A stretch of DNA of 55,709 bases from Tubiluchus corallicola (lineage: Eukaryota; Animalia; Priapulida), in the NCBI GenBank assembly GCA_030141605.1, contig JAQGDQ010001204.1:1-55709 (forward strand), in the 5' to 3' direction. This document shows positions 1 to 55,707 of the stretch, piece after piece. The notes below the pieces were generated by a model. It did not search any database and had not been told where the DNA came from. It saw nothing but the letters and a program-made list of their open reading frames with translations. Both the position numbers and the translations under genes were made by a program. How positions within the stretch are numbered: position 1 is the stretch's first letter; every line of letters begins with the position of its first letter.

Positions 1-2
1 CC

Positions 3-365
3 CAGCACAAGCGATCCACCTACAACTACCTAATCAGACACATACACGGCATCTCGTGGGAGGAGGGAATGATCGAGTACGCAGAATTGGAAAACATTCT
101 ACGACAGACCACCAGAGGCAGGATCACCTACGTCAAGGGTGCAGAGATGTACGATTTCGTCAAAAAACATCTCCCCAAAAATCGCGTGGTCATACGCGTA
201 GAGGATCTGGAAAGCGAGCACCCGCCGCCCGCCATACGTTGGCAGAGCAACGGACGAGGCAGAGCGATTCGGGCGTCCGAAACGATTGCCAACTACGTTC
301 TAACGTGTCAGTCCAAACGGTCAACATCGTCGCCACGGCTTCGTTCTCGCAGCGCTTCGATCTGA
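3..365 (+). CDS. 5'-truncated ORF, uncharacterised putative small nuclease-like protein of the element
   Basis: Frame is open from position 3: QHKRSTYNYLIRHIHGISWEEGMIEYAELENILRQTTRGRITYVKGAEMYDFVKKHLP..., stop TGA at 363-365. The HG(I/L)xWxxGxxxY...YVKG motif resembles a family I recall from Polinton-associated ORFs in invertebrates (not verified). Confidence 0.55.
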   Translation, partial: QHKRSTYNYLIRHIHGISWEEGMIEYAELENILRQTTRGRITYVKGAEMYDFVKKHLPKNRVVIRVEDLESEHPPPAIRWQSNGRGRAIRASETIANYVLTCQSKRSTSSPRLRSRSASI

Positions 366-886
366 ACGAACTCCGGTGGAGAATGGGCGGAAGACGCTAC
401 GAAAGGAAACCGCAAATGCTTCTGCTAAAGCGACTGGGCGGGACGCTGATGATTTTTGCCTCCGGCTCCGTGGTGGCCAACGGTTTTTCGGAGGAAAAAG
501 TACTACGCAATGCGATCGAAGAACTCTCGAAAGGTCTCGGACTGACGCCCGCCGACGGGATCGCAATTCGCACCATCACCGCCAGAGCCAAAATTCGCTG
601 CAGATTGAAACTGGGTGCACTGTACGAAGAACTCGTTCGTCCTTCGACGCATTCTTTTAGAGAAGTGTTTTACGAAGTGGAACTATTTCCCAAACTAACT
701 TGCAAATGCGAGCAAATTACTCTGAACATTTTTCACACAGGAAGCATAATAATGATGGGCGGGACAAAGGTCGAGGATTTCTCTCCCGTTTTCCGCAAAT
801 TTAACGAATTCGTTTTTAACAACAATAACGTTTGTCTGTATCGCATCGACGACAATCCATGTACTCGCTCGTCGTCATTAGTGTAG
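305..886 (+). CDS. Divergent intronless TATA-box-binding-protein-like protein (two TBP core repeats)
   Basis: NIVATASFSQRFDL, TLMIFASGSVVANG, YEVELFPKL and TLNIFHTGSIIMMG align with TBP NIVSTVNL..LDL, TALIFSSGKMVCTG, YEPELFPGL and VLLIFVSGKVVLTG. Start is uncertain: GTG at 305, first in-frame ATG at 383. Stop TAG at 884-886. Confidence 0.88.
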   Translation: MSVQTVNIVATASFSQRFDLNELRWRMGGRRYERKPQMLLLKRLGGTLMIFASGSVVANGFSEEKVLRNAIEELSKGLGLTPADGIAIRTITARAKIRCRLKLGALYEELVRPSTHSFREVFYEVELFPKLTCKCEQITLNIFHTGSIIMMGGTKVEDFSPVFRKFNEFVFNNNNVCLYRIDDNPCTRSSSLV

Positions 887-1021
887 TTTTACTGTAATTT
901 TTGTAATTTGTGTAATTTGCGAAAAAAACGTAAAATGTAGAACTATCATGTCACCATAATAATAATAATAATCTAGTTTTAACACGTATGTATTTTGCAT
1001 AAAAAATGTAAAAAAATTTTT

Positions 1022-1169
1022 TGTAATCCATCAATAAAAAAAGATTTGTGAAAATGCATTTATCGAACTTTGGCGTTTGAAATAAATCTCCACACCTGTA
1101 ATCCATCAATAAAAAAGATTTGTGAAAATGCATTTATCGAACTTTGGCGTTTGAAATAAATCTCCACAC
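1022..1169 (+). repeat. Near-perfect tandem duplication of a ~75-bp unit containing AATAAA motifs
   Basis: TGTAATCCATCAATAAAAAA(A)GATTTGTG...TCTCCACAC at 1022-1095 and 1097-1169, followed by a (CA)n tract to ~1209. Confidence 0.95.
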
Positions 1170-1176
1170 GCACACA

Positions 1177-1211
<35 letters not shown>

Positions 1212-1516
1212 CTAAACCCGCGAGAGAAGTGGTCGCGGAAAAGGGAAGGCACCCGAGAGAGAGAGAAGTGGTCGCGGAAAAGGGCCGGCACTGCGCGAGT
1301 GGCGGGAAAAAGATTTCCCTCATTGCCTGCAGTGGACGATTCCACGCGACGGAGGGGTGGGTTGCAGGGGGGGGTGTCCCCGACCCCCGGGACGGACGTT
1401 TGCATGCGGCGGAGGGGTGGCAGGGGCTCCCCAATTAGCGCCAATTAGCACTAATTAGTCCTCGGCGGGAACTCCACTTCTCCCTTTTTCTTCGTTTGAG
1501 GCGCTTTTTACCTCGT

Positions 1517-1614
1517 TTCACACACTTTCACACACTTTCACACGCTTTCGCGCGCTTTCACGCGCTTTCACGCGCTTTCACACACTTTCGCGCGCTTTCG
1601 AGCGCTTTCGCGCG
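1517..1614 (+). repeat. 10-bp tandem repeat (CRCRCTTTCR)n
   Basis: cacactttca / cacgctttcg / cgcgctttca units, about 9-10 copies. Confidence 0.9.
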
Positions 1615-1657
1615 GTTTAAAATGGGGCGTCAAAAAAAGAAGCCATCCAGGGGCCAG

Positions 1658-1699
1658 GGGTCAATGAACTTTGGTCACGTGACCTAGAGTTCAAGGTCA
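1658..1699. promoter_or_regulatory. Cluster of nuclear-receptor half-sites around a palindromic E-box
   Basis: GGGTCA-A-TGAACT (IR1) at 1658-1670, GGTCACGTGACC perfect palindrome at 1673-1684, TCAAGGTCA at 1691-1699. Function is inferred only. Confidence 0.35.
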
Positions 1700-2329
1700 T
1701 TCGATCCAAATGAAGCCATGCGGGAGGGAAAAACTGCAAAATTTTTACCTCGTTTCACACGCCTTTTCTTCGTTTTTCTTTGTTTTTCGCGCTTTTTCGT
1801 CGATTTCGGTCACGTGCGCACTTTCACACGGGTTTTCACACTTTTTTAGGGGTTTTCCCGGATCTTCGCACTTTTTTAGGGGTGTTTTTCCCCACCCCCC
1901 CGGGGAAATCCCCACCCCCCCGGGAAATCGGCCAGAGGTGTAACATCTATCCTACTTATAAGTATAAATATAAGATATAAATATAAATATAGATACAATG
2001 GGCAATTAATCAAACGCTGATTAAGTAACAGGCAGAACCTATATAAAATCCCTTCAGAAAGTAGATACGTCATATATAAGTTTAATAGGCACACGATTAG
2101 AAGTACTGTTAGCTATTGTAATGTATTCTTAATGCTTTTACATTAGGAATAGAATTACTGAAATTAGAAATTGAGCTTAACCTCACCAGTCGTGTGTACA
2201 TGTGTGACGAACAATAAGCATAAACAGCTTTCATGCCATAAAATAATTTGAAAAAATCATTAATTATCGGATGCCACATTAAAATGAACTTGGCTAATAA
2301 ATGCAAAACAGAGTGAACTGTAAAATAAT

Positions 2330-3002
2330 CGAAACAAACGTGTTCTCAACGTTTAGTGCGAATCCTTGATTTGGATTGATTTAAAGCAAAACCGGATCCA
2401 ATCTTAAACTATAGCTCAAAACAATCTACTCTTTAAAATATTGAAAGGAAACTTTACTATTTTTTAAAATTGACTTTGTGAAAGAACTGTTAAAACAAAA
2501 ACAATTTTGCGTTAGCGCCTCTAGTTTTTAGCTGTTAGTTGCATTTCGCCATTCGTCAGTTAGACGGGCACTAGCGCCTGCATTTCAGGAACGCATTTCC
2601 CGAAAACAGGTGCTGTACCTCTGAGTTCAGATGTGTTAGTTTGTGACGAACTGCACACGTTCGATAGCTCATGCGTGAGCACAGCGGTAAATTTGAAATT
2701 TGAATTTTTAAATTAAAACTTGCCTAGTTTTAGTACAACACACTGAATATCTTACAGTAGCACTGTACTTCAATTTTTGCTTTCGCAAACACGTGCAACA
2801 TGCTCATGGAATATTTTTGTTGTCGAAAATCATGTTAGTTTGTGACGTCATCAATAGTTGGGCTCGCCCACAGTTAATTAAGTTTTAAGTCTATTATTTA
2901 ATTATCAGAAACGCCTTTGCAGTATTAACTGTGTTAAAATGTATACTTTTGCCGGACTTGAAAATGGGGTAGTGTAGGAAAAATCATCCTGTCTTCCTTT
3001 AA
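2330..3002 (+). mobile_element. Interspersed non-autonomous DNA element (Kolobok-like end ...CCT|TTAA)
   Basis: Inverted copy at ~36130-36790; the same 3' end (CATCCTGTCTTCCTTTAA) recurs at ~43810-43930. Confidence 0.7.
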
Positions 3003-3224
3003 ACCAACAAACATAAAATCTTCAATCTCTGTCGGCTTAAACTAATTCATCTTAGAAGTCGTTGAAAATTGGTTATGTTCCAGTCCTGCCGGAAACAACG
3101 CAACGGCTTGCAGTGTGTGGAGCTGCACAAACAGCAAAACTAGAAAAGTAATGCAGATGCTACAAAGTCCAATGGAAAAGCGTCTATTTATTTCACAGCA
3201 CAAAAGACACTATTAAATTCGTTT

Positions 3225-3615
3225 TGAAATCTTGCATCATCTACACGTTGTCGTATTGACTACAGAGCTTGCATTGGCAGTAACGCAAAGCTCAGTAGTT
3301 TGTAAACTGGTAAATTTAAATACTGTTGAAAAGTTTGAATAAATAATCAGAGCATTCGCAGCATACACTTCACTAACTAAGCAAAAGTTTAAATTACTTT
3401 ATCTTGTCAATAAGATTACTAAAATTTTATTGATGAGCCAGTGACGTCTTTTGGTGTAGACTGTGATGTTCAATAGCTGGCACGAACATTTATATTACTA
3501 AGAAATTTCTTTTCCAGCTAGATAAGCCTCTCAAACAGGTAAGCGAAATGCTAACTAATATAACTTTATGTGGAAAGTTTTTTGAGATATACTTTAAAAT
3601 TTCCTTTTCTTCCCA
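3225..3615 (+). repeat. Interspersed repeat family, unclassified
   Basis: Homologous copies at ~11230-11707 and ~39020-39370 (shared ...ATCAGAGCA...TATCTTGTCAA...). Confidence 0.8.
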
Positions 3616-3829
3616 TTTAGATGTTTTTGTGGGAAAGATCCCTTATCTTAAAATAAAAATAATTACAATATCGAAAATGAAATTAGATTTTGTAGTTATT
3701 GCTTTATGCGTGATGTTAATTAGCAGTTTTTTTTATACAATTCGACAAACTGTAAACCAGAGAGTGTACTTAATGTGAATGCTTGTGGCGAGACCGGAAT
3801 TTAGCTCAGTATCAAGGATAATCGTGATA

Positions 3830-4330
3830 ACCTGGTGAGTTGGCTAATTCGTTGGTTGGTTGGTTGGTTGCTTGGTTGATAGCTTGGTTTATGGCAGGTT
3901 GATTAGTTCGCTATTTGGCTGGTTAGTTGGATGCTGGCTTTTTGACTGGTTGTTGGGTTGGTTTGTTGCTAGGTTGGATGCTGACTGGTTGGTGGGTTGG
4001 TTTGTTGCTAGGTTGGATGCTGACTGGTTGGTGGGTTGGTTCGTTGCTAGGTTGGATGCTGACTGGTTGGTGGGTTGGTTTGTTACTAGGTTGGATGCTG
4101 ACTGGTTGACTGGTTGTTGGGTTGGTTTGTTGCTAGGTTGGATGCTGGCTGGTTGACTGGTTGGCTGGTTGCTTGGTTGCTTAATTTGGTTGGTTGGTAT
4201 GTGTGCAAGGTGGTTGGTTCTGTTAGTTGATTTTTTTAGCTTGTTGGTAGTTTGGTTGGTTGGTTAGTTTGTTGCTTTGTTGATTGTTGTTGGCAGTCGG
4301 TCGGTTGGTTAGTCAGTTTTTAGTGGGTTC
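3830..4330 (+). repeat. (TTGG)n-derived satellite with a 39-bp higher-order unit
   Basis: GGTTGGTTTGTTGCTAGGTTGGATGCTGACTGGTTGGTG repeated about 5 times inside a degenerate TTGG tract. Confidence 0.9.
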
Positions 4331-4826
4331 ATCAGTAGAGTGGTTGACTGACCACTGTGTCCAAAAGTCATGGATCATTGTTTGCTGCTGTAAAATTAAA
4401 CTCTTCATTTAAAAGGAAAAACTACAAGCATATAATATATAGTGTACAGTAAGTGAAGTAATTTTATTAAGTAAAAAGTCAGTTTACACAATGTTTTCTA
4501 CAATAACAAACAGTAAGTGAAAATGCAGAGTTTATATTGCATTAAACTTGAATTGATTAAGGTTTTTAATCGTTAGAGAAATCACCCCCTCTTACAATTA
4601 GGCTACAGAGAGCAATTTCAACTAGGTTTATTTATCTATATGTTACATGCTATATATATATAGTGTTGTTACTACTAATTTGTATGTTATTACACTGTCA
4701 TTATTAGATTGTAATCATCACTTATTTACCCCACCAAAATAATAAAAATTATGATTAATATTATGATAATATCTTCAATATTATGATTATGAAATAACCA
4801 GTTTTCTTTTTCGATGATGTTGCAGG

Positions 4827-4980
4827 CTAATTGATATCACAGTGGCAGTACCAGGGATATTTGAATCCATAATGGTTAACTTGATTTGTAGTGAGGTCGA
4901 AACCATGGAGAAGTACTTCTCCATAGAGCTGACGGCAGCGACCATAACAATGCTTGGTATGAAGGCAGCTTGATCCAGGG
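4827..4980 (-). CDS. Spaetzle-like protein, coding exon 3 (terminal)
   Basis: TTTCAG acceptor, PGSSCLHTKHCYGRCRQLYGEVLLHGFDLTTNQVNHYGFKYPWYCHCDIN*. The CxQxY and FxxPxxCxC motifs are typical of Spaetzle-family knots. Minus-strand AATAAA at 4627-4632 and 4463-4468. Confidence 0.85.
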
Positions 4981-5024
4981 CTGAAATGATAGAATTTATT
5001 TATATTTTATTCTATAATAATGGG

Positions 5025-5495
5025 ATAATTATTATTGTTGTTACTGTTGTTACTGCTGCTGTAGTTTTCATCGTCATTGTCATTATTGTTGTGGTTGTCA
5101 TTGTCGTTGTTATTGTTGTTGTCGTCCACGCTGTCATTGTCATTATTATTGTGGTTGTCGTTGTCATCATTGTCGTCATCGTCATCGTTGTGATTGTACA
5201 GTAAAACTGGTGTACAATAATTTTAATTTATTTCAAGTATGCTGCAAATTACAGCACAAACAGGTGGACAGGGCGAAAAAGGCAGCGAGAGTGAGAGAAA
5301 GAGAGAGACAGAGACAGAGAAGGAGGCAGAAAGCTTATGAAAGAAAGAGAGTGAGAGACTGAGAGATTGACAGAGAGGGGAAGAGAAAGAGAGATACAGA
5401 AACGACAGGAATTCGCGAGAAAGGGGGAGAGGGAAAGACAGAGGGGGAAAAAGAGCGAGAGAGAGAAAGAATGAAAGAAAGAATAACGGGAAGAA
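5025..5495. repeat. Degenerate (TTG/TCG)n followed by a GA-rich low-complexity tract in the Spaetzle-like intron 2
   Basis: Direct inspection. Confidence 0.9.
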
Positions 5496-5555
5496 AATGA
5501 CGTTTCGGCTGTGCACAGATGTTTCACATACTCTATCATTGTTACGCAAACTTAC

Positions 5556-5771
5556 GTTTTACATCTCCGGACGTAGAGCTTTTGTCCAGGAAACACGACG
5601 ATGTTGTGACCATTACAAGATTGCACACAAATTGGCCAGTTTATGTTGTACCAGTAGTTCCATGCCGGGCACCCTTTTTGCGGTCCAGAACTTTTTGCGG
5701 TCCGAATCAGCAACCCATCTGCTGTTCCACTTGCTGCTGCCTGACGATTTGCGTTTGAATCAATCGCTGTT
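5556..5771 (-). CDS. Spaetzle-like protein, coding exon 2
   Basis: TTTGCAG acceptor and AC|GTAAGT donor, 216 bp, phase 2-2, open frame ...GCPAWNYWYNINWPICVQSCNGHNIVVFPGQKLYVRRCK. Confidence 0.85.
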
Positions 5772-6587
5772 CTGCAAATTTGATAGAGCTGTGATAATAA
5801 TTCCCTTGAAACTTATACAGGGCTGCCTTTCAAAGCCTGGCAGAAATAGCTACTGTACTTACAAATTACAGAGCGTTTTTCTTTTGAAACTTCATAAGCT
5901 TCGTTCCGAAATAAATAAGCCTTCTAACGGGTGTCAAGACAACAGCCTCAGTTTTGTGTACCACTCAGAAAACTGAAATAACCTTAGAATTGCGATCCTT
6001 TGGCCTTCTAATGACTTTGGACTTGAAGGAAACTCAGTAAGTACAACTTGCTTGATTCTAACCTTTCAGATTGCAGCATTGCAAACCATACTTTCTCACT
6101 GAACGTCATCAAAAAAAAAAAACACCCGGTTTCTAGTATTTTAATAAAAGACGTACCCCTCTTTCTGTACCAGCTTGAGTTCCTGAGATGGTTTCTTCAA
6201 CATCACAGTTGATAGTTGGTGCAAAGAGAAATTTCGAAGAGATAGTTTCAACACTACTCGACATATACTTCCAAATTTTTTAGATTTTAATTTTCGGTAA
6301 AAACAAACAAGTATGCTTCGAAAAATTATAGCTTTACCCAAGGGATACAGAGTATTTAATCTACAGGCAGTGTTATTTCACTGACCCATTGACGTCACTT
6401 TTTGTAATTATCCTCCCTACTAGATAGCTGAATTAATGGGACTACTTTTGTGGATTAATCTATAACAAGCCACCCATGCAGGATTGCCCTTATGGCCCAC
6501 CCTGTCATAATCTGATTCTACACCGAAATCATACCTAGACCATTTTTCGACCGCTTTGTGCGTTTGCGTAATCTAACAAGAACTTAC

Positions 6588-6823
6588 CTTTGAGAGGCCT
6601 GCAGATTGACACATCTTTTTGACGGACTGCTTGGGATCCTGTCGGTAGATATCAGTTGTCCGTCGTTTCCAAGTAGGTCGCTTAACGGCACACAGCAGAT
6701 GCTATTACCCACAGAGCTGCTTCTTGAAGCACTTCTTCCATAGCGGCTGCTTTGACCGCTGGTTAGCGAAAACAGTGTACAGACTAGCATAGCCAGCAGT
6801 ATTGCAGTCAGTGACGATTTCAT
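6588..6823 (-). CDS. Spaetzle-like secreted cystine-knot protein, coding exon 1 (signal peptide and prodomain)
   Basis: ATG at 6823, MKSSLTAILLAMLVCTLFSLTSG signal peptide, donor AG|GTAAGT (phase 2). An acceptor lies ~10 nt upstream of the ATG, implying a 5' UTR exon further up. Confidence 0.85.
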
Positions 6824-7414
6824 TGTTTAGATTCTATAAAGTTTAATGGAAAAAGGAATTACTTGTGGTTTTAGCAAATACTCCCCCAAATGGCATGGAA
6901 AAGATGTACCGAAGTTTTCATCACGATATTATAAAAACAAAACAATAAAATTGCCAGAAAATTACTAGATTGATAATACAGACACTTAAGTATAAATGTC
7001 AAAAATCTGAAGTCATTCCCTTAAATTTGTCCAAAGACACAAAAGTTTTAAGTCAACATGTCAAAAATGTAAATGCGGGAAAAATTTTTTGTCATTAATC
7101 ACTATTATTAAAATTTACAGCAAATGCTCTACGGGTCTATTCTTTTCACTGGAAATTTAACCAAGACGTTTCCTTCAAAAGCAGACACAGTTTCTCAAAT
7201 CTTTAAGGTGTGTTTGATCCCACCACTTAACAGCTCTTATCTTTACTTCCTTTGCATGAAACGGCTCTGTGTGGCCATTGTACACTTTCTCTTTAAGTGA
7301 ATTGCAGATGCTGTAATGCAGAGAGGATTAAGTCCCACTTTTTATTGGTAACAAATCTTTGCCAATGTCTTATTTTCTTTGGCGAATGCCATGACATAAA
7401 CGAATGTAGGTAAG

Positions 7415-7785
7415 AATGGTACAGGAAAAAAATGACTCGTTAAAAATGGCACGGTAAAAATGGTACAAGAAATGGCACAAATGGAAAAGTAGGGAAAAAG
7501 TCACAGGAAAAAATTGCACAAATTGAAAAGTAGGTAAAAATGGCACAGTAAAAAATGGGACAAATGGAAAAGTGGGTAAAGGTGATACAGGAAAAAAATG
7601 GCACAAATTGAAAACTAGGACAAATTGCACAGAAAAAATGGCACAACTGGAAAAGCAGGAAAAATGACACAGGAAAAAATGGCATAAATGGAAAAGTAGG
7701 AAAAAACGGCACAGGAAAAAAATGACACAGAAAAAATGGCACGGTAAAAATGGCACAGGAAAAAACGACACAAATGGAAAAGTAG
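7415..7785 (+). repeat. Degenerate AAAAATGGCAC(AGG) tandem array
   Basis: About 20 short purine-rich units. Confidence 0.85.
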
Positions 7786-8059
7786 ATATAAATTGTACAT
7801 GCACTGCTTTGATACAGATAATTTCAATAAGAAAGCAATTAAAATAATTATGATATGCATTTTTTCCTGTGTCGTTTTTACCTCGCACTGACATAAACTG
7901 TTTGATATCTTTATCGTTTTGCTTCCATGTATTAAGTGGTTTATAGATCAACGCCACTGTTTTTCAGTTGACGAATAGCTGACATTGTTCAGGCTTTGAA
8001 TTTTTTAGCATGCAAAATTTTTAGCCAAAATTTAAAAACCGCTGAAACCACAAATTTGT

Positions 8060-8545
8060 AACTATCACAGTCTAAAACTGATGTACTGTATTTTGACACT
8101 GTGAGGTTTCAGACGAATTACACCTTGTTATAAAATGCCCATATTACAATGATCTTAGAGGAAAATTATATAATCACATCAATGGAATTATACCAGAATT
8201 TTTCCTTATGAGCGATGCAGATAAATTTTTATTTTTGATGAGAAGTAATGATATAGAAGTATTTAAGGCATTTATTGAAAAAGCGTTTTCTAGACATGAT
8301 GAATATACCATGCCATGATCATATCATCGAAAGCGAGGCCAAATGTGTGACAATTTATTTTAAATACTAATCATTAAACTCTTGATTTAAACTCTTGATT
8401 TAAATAACTAACAGGAGCGATTTTATAATATTAATTTTGTTTTGTTTGCCTGCAGTGTCGCTATATTTCAAAATTGAAATTGTATGTATGTCTTGTTTTT
8501 GCTTGTATTGTATGTATTTTGGCACTAATAAATATGATTATGAAT
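8060..8545 (+). mobile_element. LINE (CR1/L2-group) 3' remnant
   Basis: Translates DELHLVIKCPYYNDLRGK, matching the E-H-xxx-CP-Y-xxR C-terminal motif; AATAAA with an ATT-rich tail at ~8527-8550. Confidence 0.55.
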
Positions 8546-8929
8546 ATTATTGTCTAAACCTCTTTCTGTGCCAACTGATGTGTGTACTTAGAATAACTTG
8601 CAGTCAATGTTAATGCGTACATAGCTAGCTTACCTGTATGAAGTTTCTACGCCTTCCTCTGTCAAACTTCAGATATCTGTGTCTTCAGTAACGTTCGTCG
8701 TTATTGGTTGTTCGGTCGCAATTTATAGTGTTGTCAACTTGTCCTGAATTTGAAAACTTGTAAGTTTGTAAATTTTATTATCTTTGCACGAATTCACAAG
8801 TATCTCTGCACGAATTCCCAATGTTTTCCACGAACCCATTTTTAATAGGTTTTTTAATTTTATGCATCAGTTACGACACCCATTTGCACGAGCTGATTTT
8901 ATAATAGTTCTTTAATTTTATGCTTACAA

Positions 8930-10085
8930 GACCAAGGCAGGAAATAACTCGTTGGGAAAAACCCGACGGCTTTGAAAGTTGACGGAGCAGGTTTTTCCCC
9001 ACGTTAAGAGGCAAAGCTATCTCTTAACTTAATATGTACTAAAGGGAAGTTTTTCTCCACGTATAGGAACCGGTTTTCTTCACGTAATAAAGACACCAAG
9101 TGTGTCGGGAATAAAGTATCCCAGGATGATATATTCCAAGCGAACGTATACTATATACACAAGATTTAGGATTAGTGCGCACAAATTGGATAGTGAGAGG
9201 GGAGGTATCATAAACAAACATACCTGCTCACCAAAGAATATGTGAGATGAATCAAGTAGAAGACGAAATGCATTTTTGCATGACATGTCCTGCTTATCAA
9301 AATGAGAGAAAAGTTGTATTTGAAAATATTTCCTCCTTTTGCAGATATGCCTGTAAGTGAATAGTTTGTTTATTAATGGCCTAAATGATGTAAAGATGAG
9401 ACCCTTAGTAATAAATTTTATACACGACATCAGTAAGAAAAGGGAAGAGAAACAGGATAACAAATAACTTCAATTTGAACTCGCAGCCTATAAATGTATT
9501 CTTTCTATTGTTCTTTTTTATGTGTTATTGTGCTTTTGTTAGTATTGTGCTTTTGTTAGTATTGTGCGTTTGTTATCATTGTGCGTTTGTTATCATTGTG
9601 CTTTTGTTAGTATTGCGTTTTTTATATAATCGTCCCTACTACGTTTGAGTCGCTTCATCCTATGTACAGGATCAATGTTTTTCTCCTTGTGTTGTATGTT
9701 CTTTATGTTGCGTGGTATGCTCAACGTCTGGATATTCATATATTGAATTGTTAACTTCGTGACACTGACTAACACTATTTTGTTTTGTTTACAGGTCATG
9801 TTGTGAAGTTATTATGTTGTTATGTCATGTCGTTATATATGAAGTGATAATGTAAATAAGCACATCGTGATGTTTTAACTCATTTGTTTACTGCTTTCAT
9901 TTACAAGCATATATAGATGACACGGCAATGGACATCAAACAGTAATAAAATACATTTCGAGAACAAATTTTAGATAAAACGTTTAGTTTGATACATCGAC
10001 TCTCCCACCTTTTCTGGGCTAAAAACGAAATAAGCGAGATCTAGGAACCAAAATAAATTCTCCGTTCTCGGCGAATGCCAGATTT
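8930..10085 (+). mobile_element. Interspersed element interrupted by a LINE fragment
   Basis: 8930-9060 and ~9760-10085 both match 37910-38550 in inverted orientation and conserved order. Confidence 0.7.
9140..9500 (+). mobile_element. LINE (L2/Crack-like) 3' remnant
   Basis: Broken frame FRISAHKL...GRY...VEDEMHFCMTCPAYQNERK. Confidence 0.65.

Positions 10086-29287: not shown

Positions 29288-55707
<26,420 letters not shown>

Follow-up and report, generated by a model that had tools for sequence, protein, structure and literature searches.

What purpose could a homologue of the TATA-binding protein (TBP) serve at the very tip of an element lodged in an animal genome? The question is raised by the first 1956 bases of a contig from Tubiluchus corallicola (JAQGDQ010001204.1, positions 1 to 55,709; this whole stretch of 55,709 nucleotides is referred to as the window), which an earlier note had taken for the end of a Polinton or virus-like element encoding its own TBP. 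It bears on a more general problem, that of how Polintons, having no RNA polymerase of their own, activate their genes inside host chromatin. Taken together, the results assembled here (features in Table 1) identify the segment 1-1956 very probably as a Polinton end with a TBP from a Polinton-specific clade. The explanation that we favour, and regard as reasonably probable, goes further: the segment would form the right end of an animal Polinton/Maverick, of adintovirus type, that was amplified recently, and its last gene, the TBP, would act as a private promoter reader recruiting host TFIIB and RNA polymerase II.

Table 1. Features at the left edge of the window, with the observations on which each rests.
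Feature	Position	Strand	Evidence or remark
Stop-free upstream stretch of the TBP frame, possible N-terminal extension	2..304	+	weakly supported; overlaps exonuclease gene
DEDD/DnaQ-fold exonuclease-like gene, 3' part	3..365	+	BLASTP to L010 ORF and P0111; 5' end beyond window
TBP-like gene, both lobes of saddle	305..886	+	Pfam, structure model, fold searches, residue map
AT-rich 3' region	887..1210	+	four AATAAA (1033, 1081, 1108, 1155)
74-bp tandem duplication	1022-1169		within AT-rich 3' region
CA microsatellite	1165-1210		end of AT-rich 3' region
GC-rich subterminal region	1211..1950	.	short tandem modules: 31-, 27-, 10-, 20-bp units
Element terminus	1951..1956	.	5/6 match to (ACT)2-3' Maverick end motif; depth step
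Candidate 6-bp target-site duplication	1957..1962	.	inferred from position; start of (TATAAA)n host repeat

The last ORF of the segment encodes a TBP homologue, as had been supposed, and family and fold assignments agree on it. Pfam family PF00352 is matched in two stretches of the frame 2..886 (E 2.2e-20), and again in two stretches when the part 290-883 is taken alone (E 4.9e-21); the score of 74.8 bits compares with a cut-off of 22.9. The AlphaFold (AF2) model of the protein (pLDDT 89.7) retrieves TBPs at ranks 1-44 of a Foldseek search of the PDB (19-27% identity, best E 1e-10, TM 0.7-0.8), and its VIA fit gives Z 14.7-17.5 for 38 TBP entries before dropping to 8.7, with an rmsd of 2.4-3.1 over 169-181 residues. 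Two TBP repeats build the saddle of the family, and 305-886 is a complete two-lobed TBP fold. At 22-24% identity to canonical TBP the frame is unbroken over 193 codons, with the structural residues all kept; an insert of ~8 residues ahead of the C-terminal stirrup is shared with P0003, the closest relative.

The last ~20 codons of an exonuclease-like gene overlap the TBP frame. The product of this upstream ORF, 3-365, has no Pfam match of its own and is recognised through two relatives, an ORF of the metagenome locus L010 (E 9e-8) and the protein P0111 (E 2e-8; 32% identity over 62 residues of the part inside the window), the BLASTP E-values being those of single pairs. The full-length relatives carry a D-x-E motif at their start. 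The model of P0111 (pLDDT 68) resembles oligoribonuclease, REXO2 and Maelstrom (E 5e-4), and it is in this relative that the DnaQ/DEDD fold and the ExoI D-x-E are seen; the window holds the C-terminal part only, which is devoid of the relatives' C-terminal His-Cys motif. Searches for further homologues returned 0/42 among longer proteins and none in PHROGs or PDB sequences. The order of exonuclease-like gene followed directly by TBP recurs in L010, the sole match among 82 loci (E 1.7e-4). Of the overlapping ORFs described in the earlier note, 3-365 and the TBP frame are supported, and the third, 304-660, has a best Pfam E of 0.29.

Composition sets the segment apart from its host, in a pattern less simple than the GC- and CpG-richer cassette first described. 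GC content is 0.51 over 1-886 and 0.54 over 1201-1956, and 0.35-0.37 in host DNA (0.36 for 1957-10000); CpG observed/expected is 1.43 and 1.13 in the two element stretches and 0.74-0.78 in the host (0.74 for 1957-10000). The picture is not uniform, because the intervening 887-1200 is AT-rich (GC 0.29). The repeat modules said to follow the TBP gene are present at 893-1929. The sharp boundary at 1956 is borne out by a 5/6 match to the end motif, which has been reported for vertebrate Mavericks (PMC8097293), and by a fall in read depth from hundreds to single-copy level; the motif is short and meaningful through its position only, which coincides exactly with the boundary of composition and depth. 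A 14-base version of the terminus pattern gave 120 matches in IMG/VR, none of which was extended by blastn or tblastn, and these are put down to chance. The host side of the boundary conforms to the expectation of spliced genes, with two separate exons of Miro (mitochondrial Rho GTPase) at ~41.0 and 46.8 kb whose best match is animal Miro. No second element end is found within the window. The suggestion that ~1000-1956 forms a terminal repeat of ~1 kb gains no support from the X2 depth, which at 1741-1827 (384) fails to double relative to that of the gene (536-576); part of 1211-1950 may be a terminal inverted repeat.

Read depth characterises the segment as a member of a multicopy family. Four of the six public runs listed, which come from two studies, contain 62-69% of the sampled window words, and X1/X3 are possibly the window's source sample. 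In X2, the region 159-900 is covered by one contig of depth 536 that departs from the window at 6 letters and by a 9-base indel; a contig from the flank, 2062-2212, reaches depth 5. X1 has a summed depth of ~40,000 at a number of variant positions within both ORFs, compared with 88-123 for flank contigs, summed contig depth not being equal to copy number. The resulting excess of element over flank, ~100-fold in X2 and ~400-fold in X1, is a rough guide that may include free viral DNA, and it comes from a read-contig comparison in which 1949-2001 was skipped as repeat, contigs across the 1956 junction thus lying outside it. Sister contigs ~86% identical to the element accompany the depth excess, as in a dispersed multicopy family, and the second study contains the element at ~99% identity. 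At the end motif the depth changes by two orders of magnitude, likely the pattern left by a recently amplified element.

The relatives of the TBP gene place it more precisely. A search of 1.84 billion representatives yielded 101 matches, headed by P0003 at 60% identity and continuing with many short (160-190 residues), divergent TBPs mixed with cellular ones. An alignment of four such short TBPs led to 424 confirmed metagenome stretches, 80 of which were kept, and 18 loci, one of them from IMG/VR, were read for gene context. Next to a divergent TBP, L002 encodes a protein-primed PolB (pPolB; PF03175, E 3e-23); an rve plus chromo integrase lies near the TBP gene in L003, L005 and L008; L042 combines an rve-chromo integrase with a Pox_A32 ATPase, adenain (PF00770) and PC4; L078 has adenain and L011 a weak protease match. 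In L042 and L078 there are also ORFs without Pfam match that we take to be capsid-like. The TBP gene sits among the core genes in L003, L005, L008, L011 and L042. No hallmark gene was seen in the short loci L007, L009 and L012, and the loci read further include three with canonical TBP, the unclear L050 and the NCLDV-like L082. In IMG/VR, no relative turned up with the TBP, the upstream ORF or the alignments A2 and A8 as query, and A3 and A6 each led to one NCLDV-like locus; when metagenomes were scanned with P0003 and the window TBP together, the yield was 0/295 candidates.

Phylogeny assigns the window TBP to the same group as these loci. A quick tree of 76 rows was refined to a careful tree of 35 of them, the dropped rows being mostly short TBPs without context and redundant cellular ones. 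In the careful tree the window TBP pairs with P0003 and is then joined by P0004, P0005 and P0011 (98/96); these four nearest relatives have no known gene context. A 16-row group with support 100/98 unites the window TBP, P0003 and all 8 Polinton-context rows, L010 having received that label from its gene order alone, and leaves the NCLDV-like L082 outside. Placing the window TBP among the 12 canonical eukaryotic TBPs is rejected by the AU test (p 0.00036), where canonical is a label assigned by eye and the trees are without an animal TBP or TRF2 row. The TBPs of the hallmark-gene loci are just 19-26% identical to that of the window, a range in which long branches may attract. The phylogeny proposed as a check has in this way put the TBP inside a Polinton-borne clade and apart from canonical TBP, and the assignment as a Polinton or virus-like end gains from the concurrence of terminus motif, high depth, tree position and L010 gene order.

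What the protein might do is suggested by mapping the residues of 14 clade rows and 5 canonical rows on canonical TBP. In cellular TBP, the stirrup glutamates contact TFIIB, and a basic N-lobe patch receives TFIIA, TAF1, Brf1/2 and Mot1/BTAF1 (PMC7221094). Both TFIIB-contact glutamates are kept in all clade rows (14/14), the window protein included. The basic surface is reduced: the net charge of helix 2, +3 to +5 in 5/5 canonical rows, does not exceed +2 in 13/14 clade rows and is -1 in the window protein. The intercalating phenylalanines are retained unequally (Phe1 in 2/14, Phe2 in 13/14, Phe3 in 14/14, Phe4 in 13/14), and the window protein has three of the four, its first N-lobe Phe being replaced by Leu or Gln depending on the aligner. 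The FP motif of the C-terminal lobe and the stirrup motif Y-E-x-E-L-F-P are kept. At the position of the second DNA-reading Asn most clade rows have Thr or Ser, and the reading of TATA may therefore differ more than assumed. TFIIB was not matched in 77 ORF scans from 12 loci, which are partial elements, and by eye no shared promoter motif is evident in the 90-base upstream stretches of L003, L011 and L042.

In the mechanism that we propose, the C-terminal lobe, with both its Phe and the FP motif, would bind and bend an AT-rich element promoter, and the loss of one N-lobe Phe would shift or relax the specificity away from the host TATA box. The intact acidic stirrup would dock host TFIIB, so that the element would need no TFIIB of its own; use of the host factor is suggested by the glutamates, invariant in the clade, and by the lack of a TFIIB match in the partial loci. 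The neutralised surface of helix 2 would bring release from TFIIA, TAF1, Brf1 and the evictor Mot1/BTAF1, and element transcription would consequently be independent of host TFIID control. Judged from the residues, then, the protein is predicted to bind DNA and TFIIB, as a promoter reader that would borrow TFIIB and Pol II from the host and evade eviction.

Translation is the weakest step of the proposed explanation. In-frame ATGs occur within the window at 383 and 416 only, none of them ahead of the first TBP strand. Homologues start 2-8 residues before the V-N-I-V motif, and the window codon at the homologous position is GTG, at 305-307, with A at -3. In the abundant X2 contig 305-307 reads GTG as well, and 383-385 is changed; the GTG is accordingly a trait of the abundant family, and the ATG at 383, private to this copy, is rejected as start. 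At a 5% threshold, X1/X3 show no variant at 305 among the best-supported rows, beyond which lie 60 further rows. A canonical initiator does occur in one sister contig (depth 29.5), at the site matching 305. It falls on a CpG, in a decayed copy that has further CpG-type changes and a stop within the frame; a single X5 contig is likewise without a canonical initiator there, for which reasons a simple recent loss of the start is not clear. In another single X5 contig, read by eye, the first-strand motif is preserved via silent changes.

Other ways of supplying an N-terminus were considered. The frame 2-304 is free of stops, with stop-capable junctions used in 0/20 cases compared with 10/58 others (Fisher p 0.041). 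The signal is a weak one, because a control frame is similarly depleted (4/33 vs 32/96), which undercuts selection for an open upstream frame at nominal p 0.016-0.041. A scan of the sequence by eye revealed no canonical slippery heptamer for a -1 frameshift from the exonuclease frame. A splice acceptor at 309-311 after CTAAC was dismissed, the distance from branch to AG being only 8 bases and no strong donor being present in 1-300, though a donor further upstream is possible. Our single best guess, put forward tentatively, is low-level initiation at the near-cognate GTG 305. That a spliced leader supplies the start is conceivable and somewhat doubtful; an in-frame ATG upstream, outside the window, is unlikely, as is the lack of any full-length TBP product in this subfamily; some other recoding is very improbable.

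Substitutions between copies bear on the coding state of the frame. Against the sister contig, 6/14 differences in 366-445 are silent by hand count, 4 of these being common to 2-4 contigs; the excess at third positions is marginal (8/14, ~p 0.06 by hand), and the sister contig is itself decayed.

Among the rival explanations of the segment, those that dispute its origin fare worst. A host TBP or TRF2 gene that had been retrocopied, or duplicated and then decayed, within a repeat would be intronless, without a start ATG and with poly(A) signals downstream, all of which is the case here; the earlier note had named such a processed pseudogene, and a chimeric or contaminating join, as outcomes that would overturn its reading. 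A pseudogene of host TBP is rejected because identity to canonical TBP is 22-24%, in a frame that is moreover intact, and because of the AU test. An assembly chimera or contaminant is unlikely, given that the second study has a ~99%-identical element and that the end motif lies at the exact boundary; the depth, too, is far above single-copy. We consider this whole group of explanations scarcely credible. Better placed, and still quite improbable, is the end of some other endogenous DNA virus, such as an integrase-less MELD virus, a Polinton-like virus or an NCLDV fragment. No core gene is seen for the window copy, of which 1956 bases lie in the window; TBPs are common in NCLDV (BFVD matches; L001, L082); and a figure in Starrett 2021 puts a TBP label on a non-animal MELD virus. 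Against it stand the Maverick-type motif at the exact boundary, the hundreds-fold depth, the clade shared with integrase-bearing loci, the position of L082 outside that clade, and the identity of only 5-20% to NCLDV TBPs.

The Polinton end itself leaves room for two other views of its TBP. The protein might be a decoy that shuts off the host by titrating TFIIB or blocking host promoters, not driving element genes. An invariant TFIIB stirrup beside a reduced TFIIA/TAF1 surface on helix 2 would suit this role, as would a gene located, in the window element and L010, at the element end beside an accessory nuclease-like gene and not in a virion module. A pure TFIIB sponge would nonetheless have no need of three of the four intercalating Phe and the FP motif, the TBP gene lies amid core genes in five of the loci read, and host shut-off would presumably be of little gain to an integrated high-copy element. 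The residue pattern favours redirection of host Pol II over the decoy, which we consider rather unlikely. Alternatively, the TBP could be a passenger not translated in full, through loss of the start in the founder or through a product made from Met 416, in an element whose spread was helped in trans. The abundant contig without in-frame ATG before the core, the low-depth sister contig with its canonical initiator and the gene call of the 60% identical P0003, which is from an internal Met, all point that way; and of the 9 differences from the sister in the overlap 305-365, 5/9 fall by hand count on the wobble position of the exonuclease frame and 2/9 on that of the TBP frame. The intact 193 codons with every structural residue, the CpG in a stop-bearing sister, the X5 contig equally without initiator and the silent changes by which another X5 contig retains the first-strand motif argue against it, and the AF2 model implies that a product from 416 would be without the saddle's first strand and helix. 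The passenger is thus also judged unlikely, and the promoter reader that recruits host TFIIB remains the explanation we prefer. Extended to its limit, it would have animal Polintons share an old clade of stripped-down TBPs that use host TFIIB and evade Mot1/TAF1 as a one-protein pre-initiation switch, with dosage here throttled by a non-AUG or recoded start inside the overlapping exonuclease gene; we offer this broader version as a tentative possibility.

Should the preferred explanation hold, a TBP private to the element, with the contact to TFIIB retained and the host regulators shed, would be a concrete and cheaply testable answer to the question of how such elements are transcribed. Giant viruses have orthogonal pairs of TBP and TFIIB, and herpesviruses have large mimics; such a TBP would constitute a third viral design. 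With a depth hundreds-fold that of single-copy DNA, effects on host transcription could arise even from weak expression, and the absent canonical start raises the question of translational control in these elements.

How the window TBP relates to known systems can finally be specified. From cellular TBP (PF00352; yeast 1ytb, human 1cdw) it retains the two-lobed saddle (Z ~17) and the Y-E-x-E-L-F-P stirrup, differing in its 21-27% identity, the one replaced Phe, a helix 2 that is not basic, the insert of ~8 residues and the lack of a canonical start. With animal Polintons/Mavericks (PMC8097293) the element has in common the end motif near (ACT)2-3', compact intronless genes, and near-identical copies alongside decayed relatives; the eight core genes listed there exclude TBP, and the window copy is known from its right end alone. 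In the literature searched, in which few subscription papers were covered, no analysis of TBP in animal Polintons was found, and the only direct mention is in Starrett's figure legends, where a MELD virus whose PolB is adintovirus-like has a gene labelled TBP (PMC8502044, Fig. 5 legend; preprint 10.1101/697771, Figs 5-6 legends). One supplement of that study gave no TBP match, and the main texts of PMC7221094 and of the coral polintovirus paper PMC11131425 do not contain the words "Polinton" and "TATA", respectively. A TBP in such an element is hence less unprecedented than the earlier note implied. The MELD virus shares with the window a TBP-like gene carried by a linear dsDNA element of medium size from the Polinton/adintovirus group, there in the form of a figure label from non-animal datasets, without analysis in the text (PMC8502044); the window element, by contrast, is integrated and amplified in an animal, with its TBP placed in a clade and mapped by residue.

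The TBPs of large dsDNA viruses (PMC7221094) likewise keep the DNA-contacting Phe largely, have lost the N-lobe basic patch and are likely free of Mot1/BTAF1. They differ in that their TFIIB glutamates are ~40% conserved and a viral TFIIB occurs in almost all genomes, whereas in the Polinton clade the regulator patch alone is lost, the glutamates are complete and the partial loci gave no TFIIB match. KSHV ORF24 and the related TBP mimics of beta/gamma-herpesviruses (PMC12529657) are the same in principle, as a virus-coded TBP fold that could redirect Pol II; ORF24 is nevertheless large and multi-domain, makes direct contact with Pol II, is without the TFIIB glutamates and works with five partner proteins, unlike the window TBP, which is a bare domain of ~190 residues with the TFIIB stirrup kept. 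Viewed against these systems, the combination that appears to be new within viral TBPs is that of a protein predicted to be compatible with host TFIIB and blind to host regulators, encoded here without a canonical start.

In the public sequencing runs compared with the window, the element is accompanied, over window segment 62-690, by at least two more subfamilies, about 86% and 89% identical, together with a more distant one that matches in patches only. Run X5 carries only distant relatives, though its species label is that of run X1. Beside the element lies a separate, MITE-like host repeat, whose left ends are sharp at 2379-2381 in read contigs from these runs; it is found in X5 too, and its depth, summed over contigs and as such not a copy number, exceeds 1e6 in X1. 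A short Cys-rich frame follows in the flank, which we take to resemble the beginning of a THAP domain, and for which a Pfam scan returned no match at E 0.001. Mitochondrial Rho GTPase 1 (5ksz) is the top PDB match of the Miro exons (E 7e-16).

Features in the window and in metagenome loci with related, divergent TBPs
Feature	Location	Strand	Remarks
Segment with subfamilies	window 62-690
MITE-like host repeat	window 2380-2600		outside element; very high depth
Short Cys-rich frame	window 3046-3216
Host Miro (mitochondrial Rho GTPase) exons	window 40986-41228 and 46715-46903	-	PDB match
TATA-like box, ~18-base stretch	L010:440-495 and 930-985
pPolB	L002:1840-6600		N-terminal zinc finger; long Pro/Thr-rich region
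Double-PC4-domain gene	L042:1302-2731		directly before TBP; E 4e-21

Among the related loci, L010 has one TATA-like box ahead of the TBP gene and another ahead of the following ORF, each succeeded by a near-identical stretch immediately 5' of the ATG; this arrangement is a candidate element promoter. The pPolB of L002 additionally gives a weak endonuclease VII match. L042 is a near-complete Polinton and encodes PC4 domains, known from transcription coactivators or ssDNA binders. Its TBP retains, in the residue map, all four DNA-intercalating Phe and a basic helix 2, and the clade uniting the window TBP with Polinton-context TBPs therefore ranges from canonical-like to rewired forms. L007, L009, L010 and L012 encode shortened TBPs, 151-157 residues long, whose N-lobe helices carry deletions; the window TBP, by comparison, is full length.
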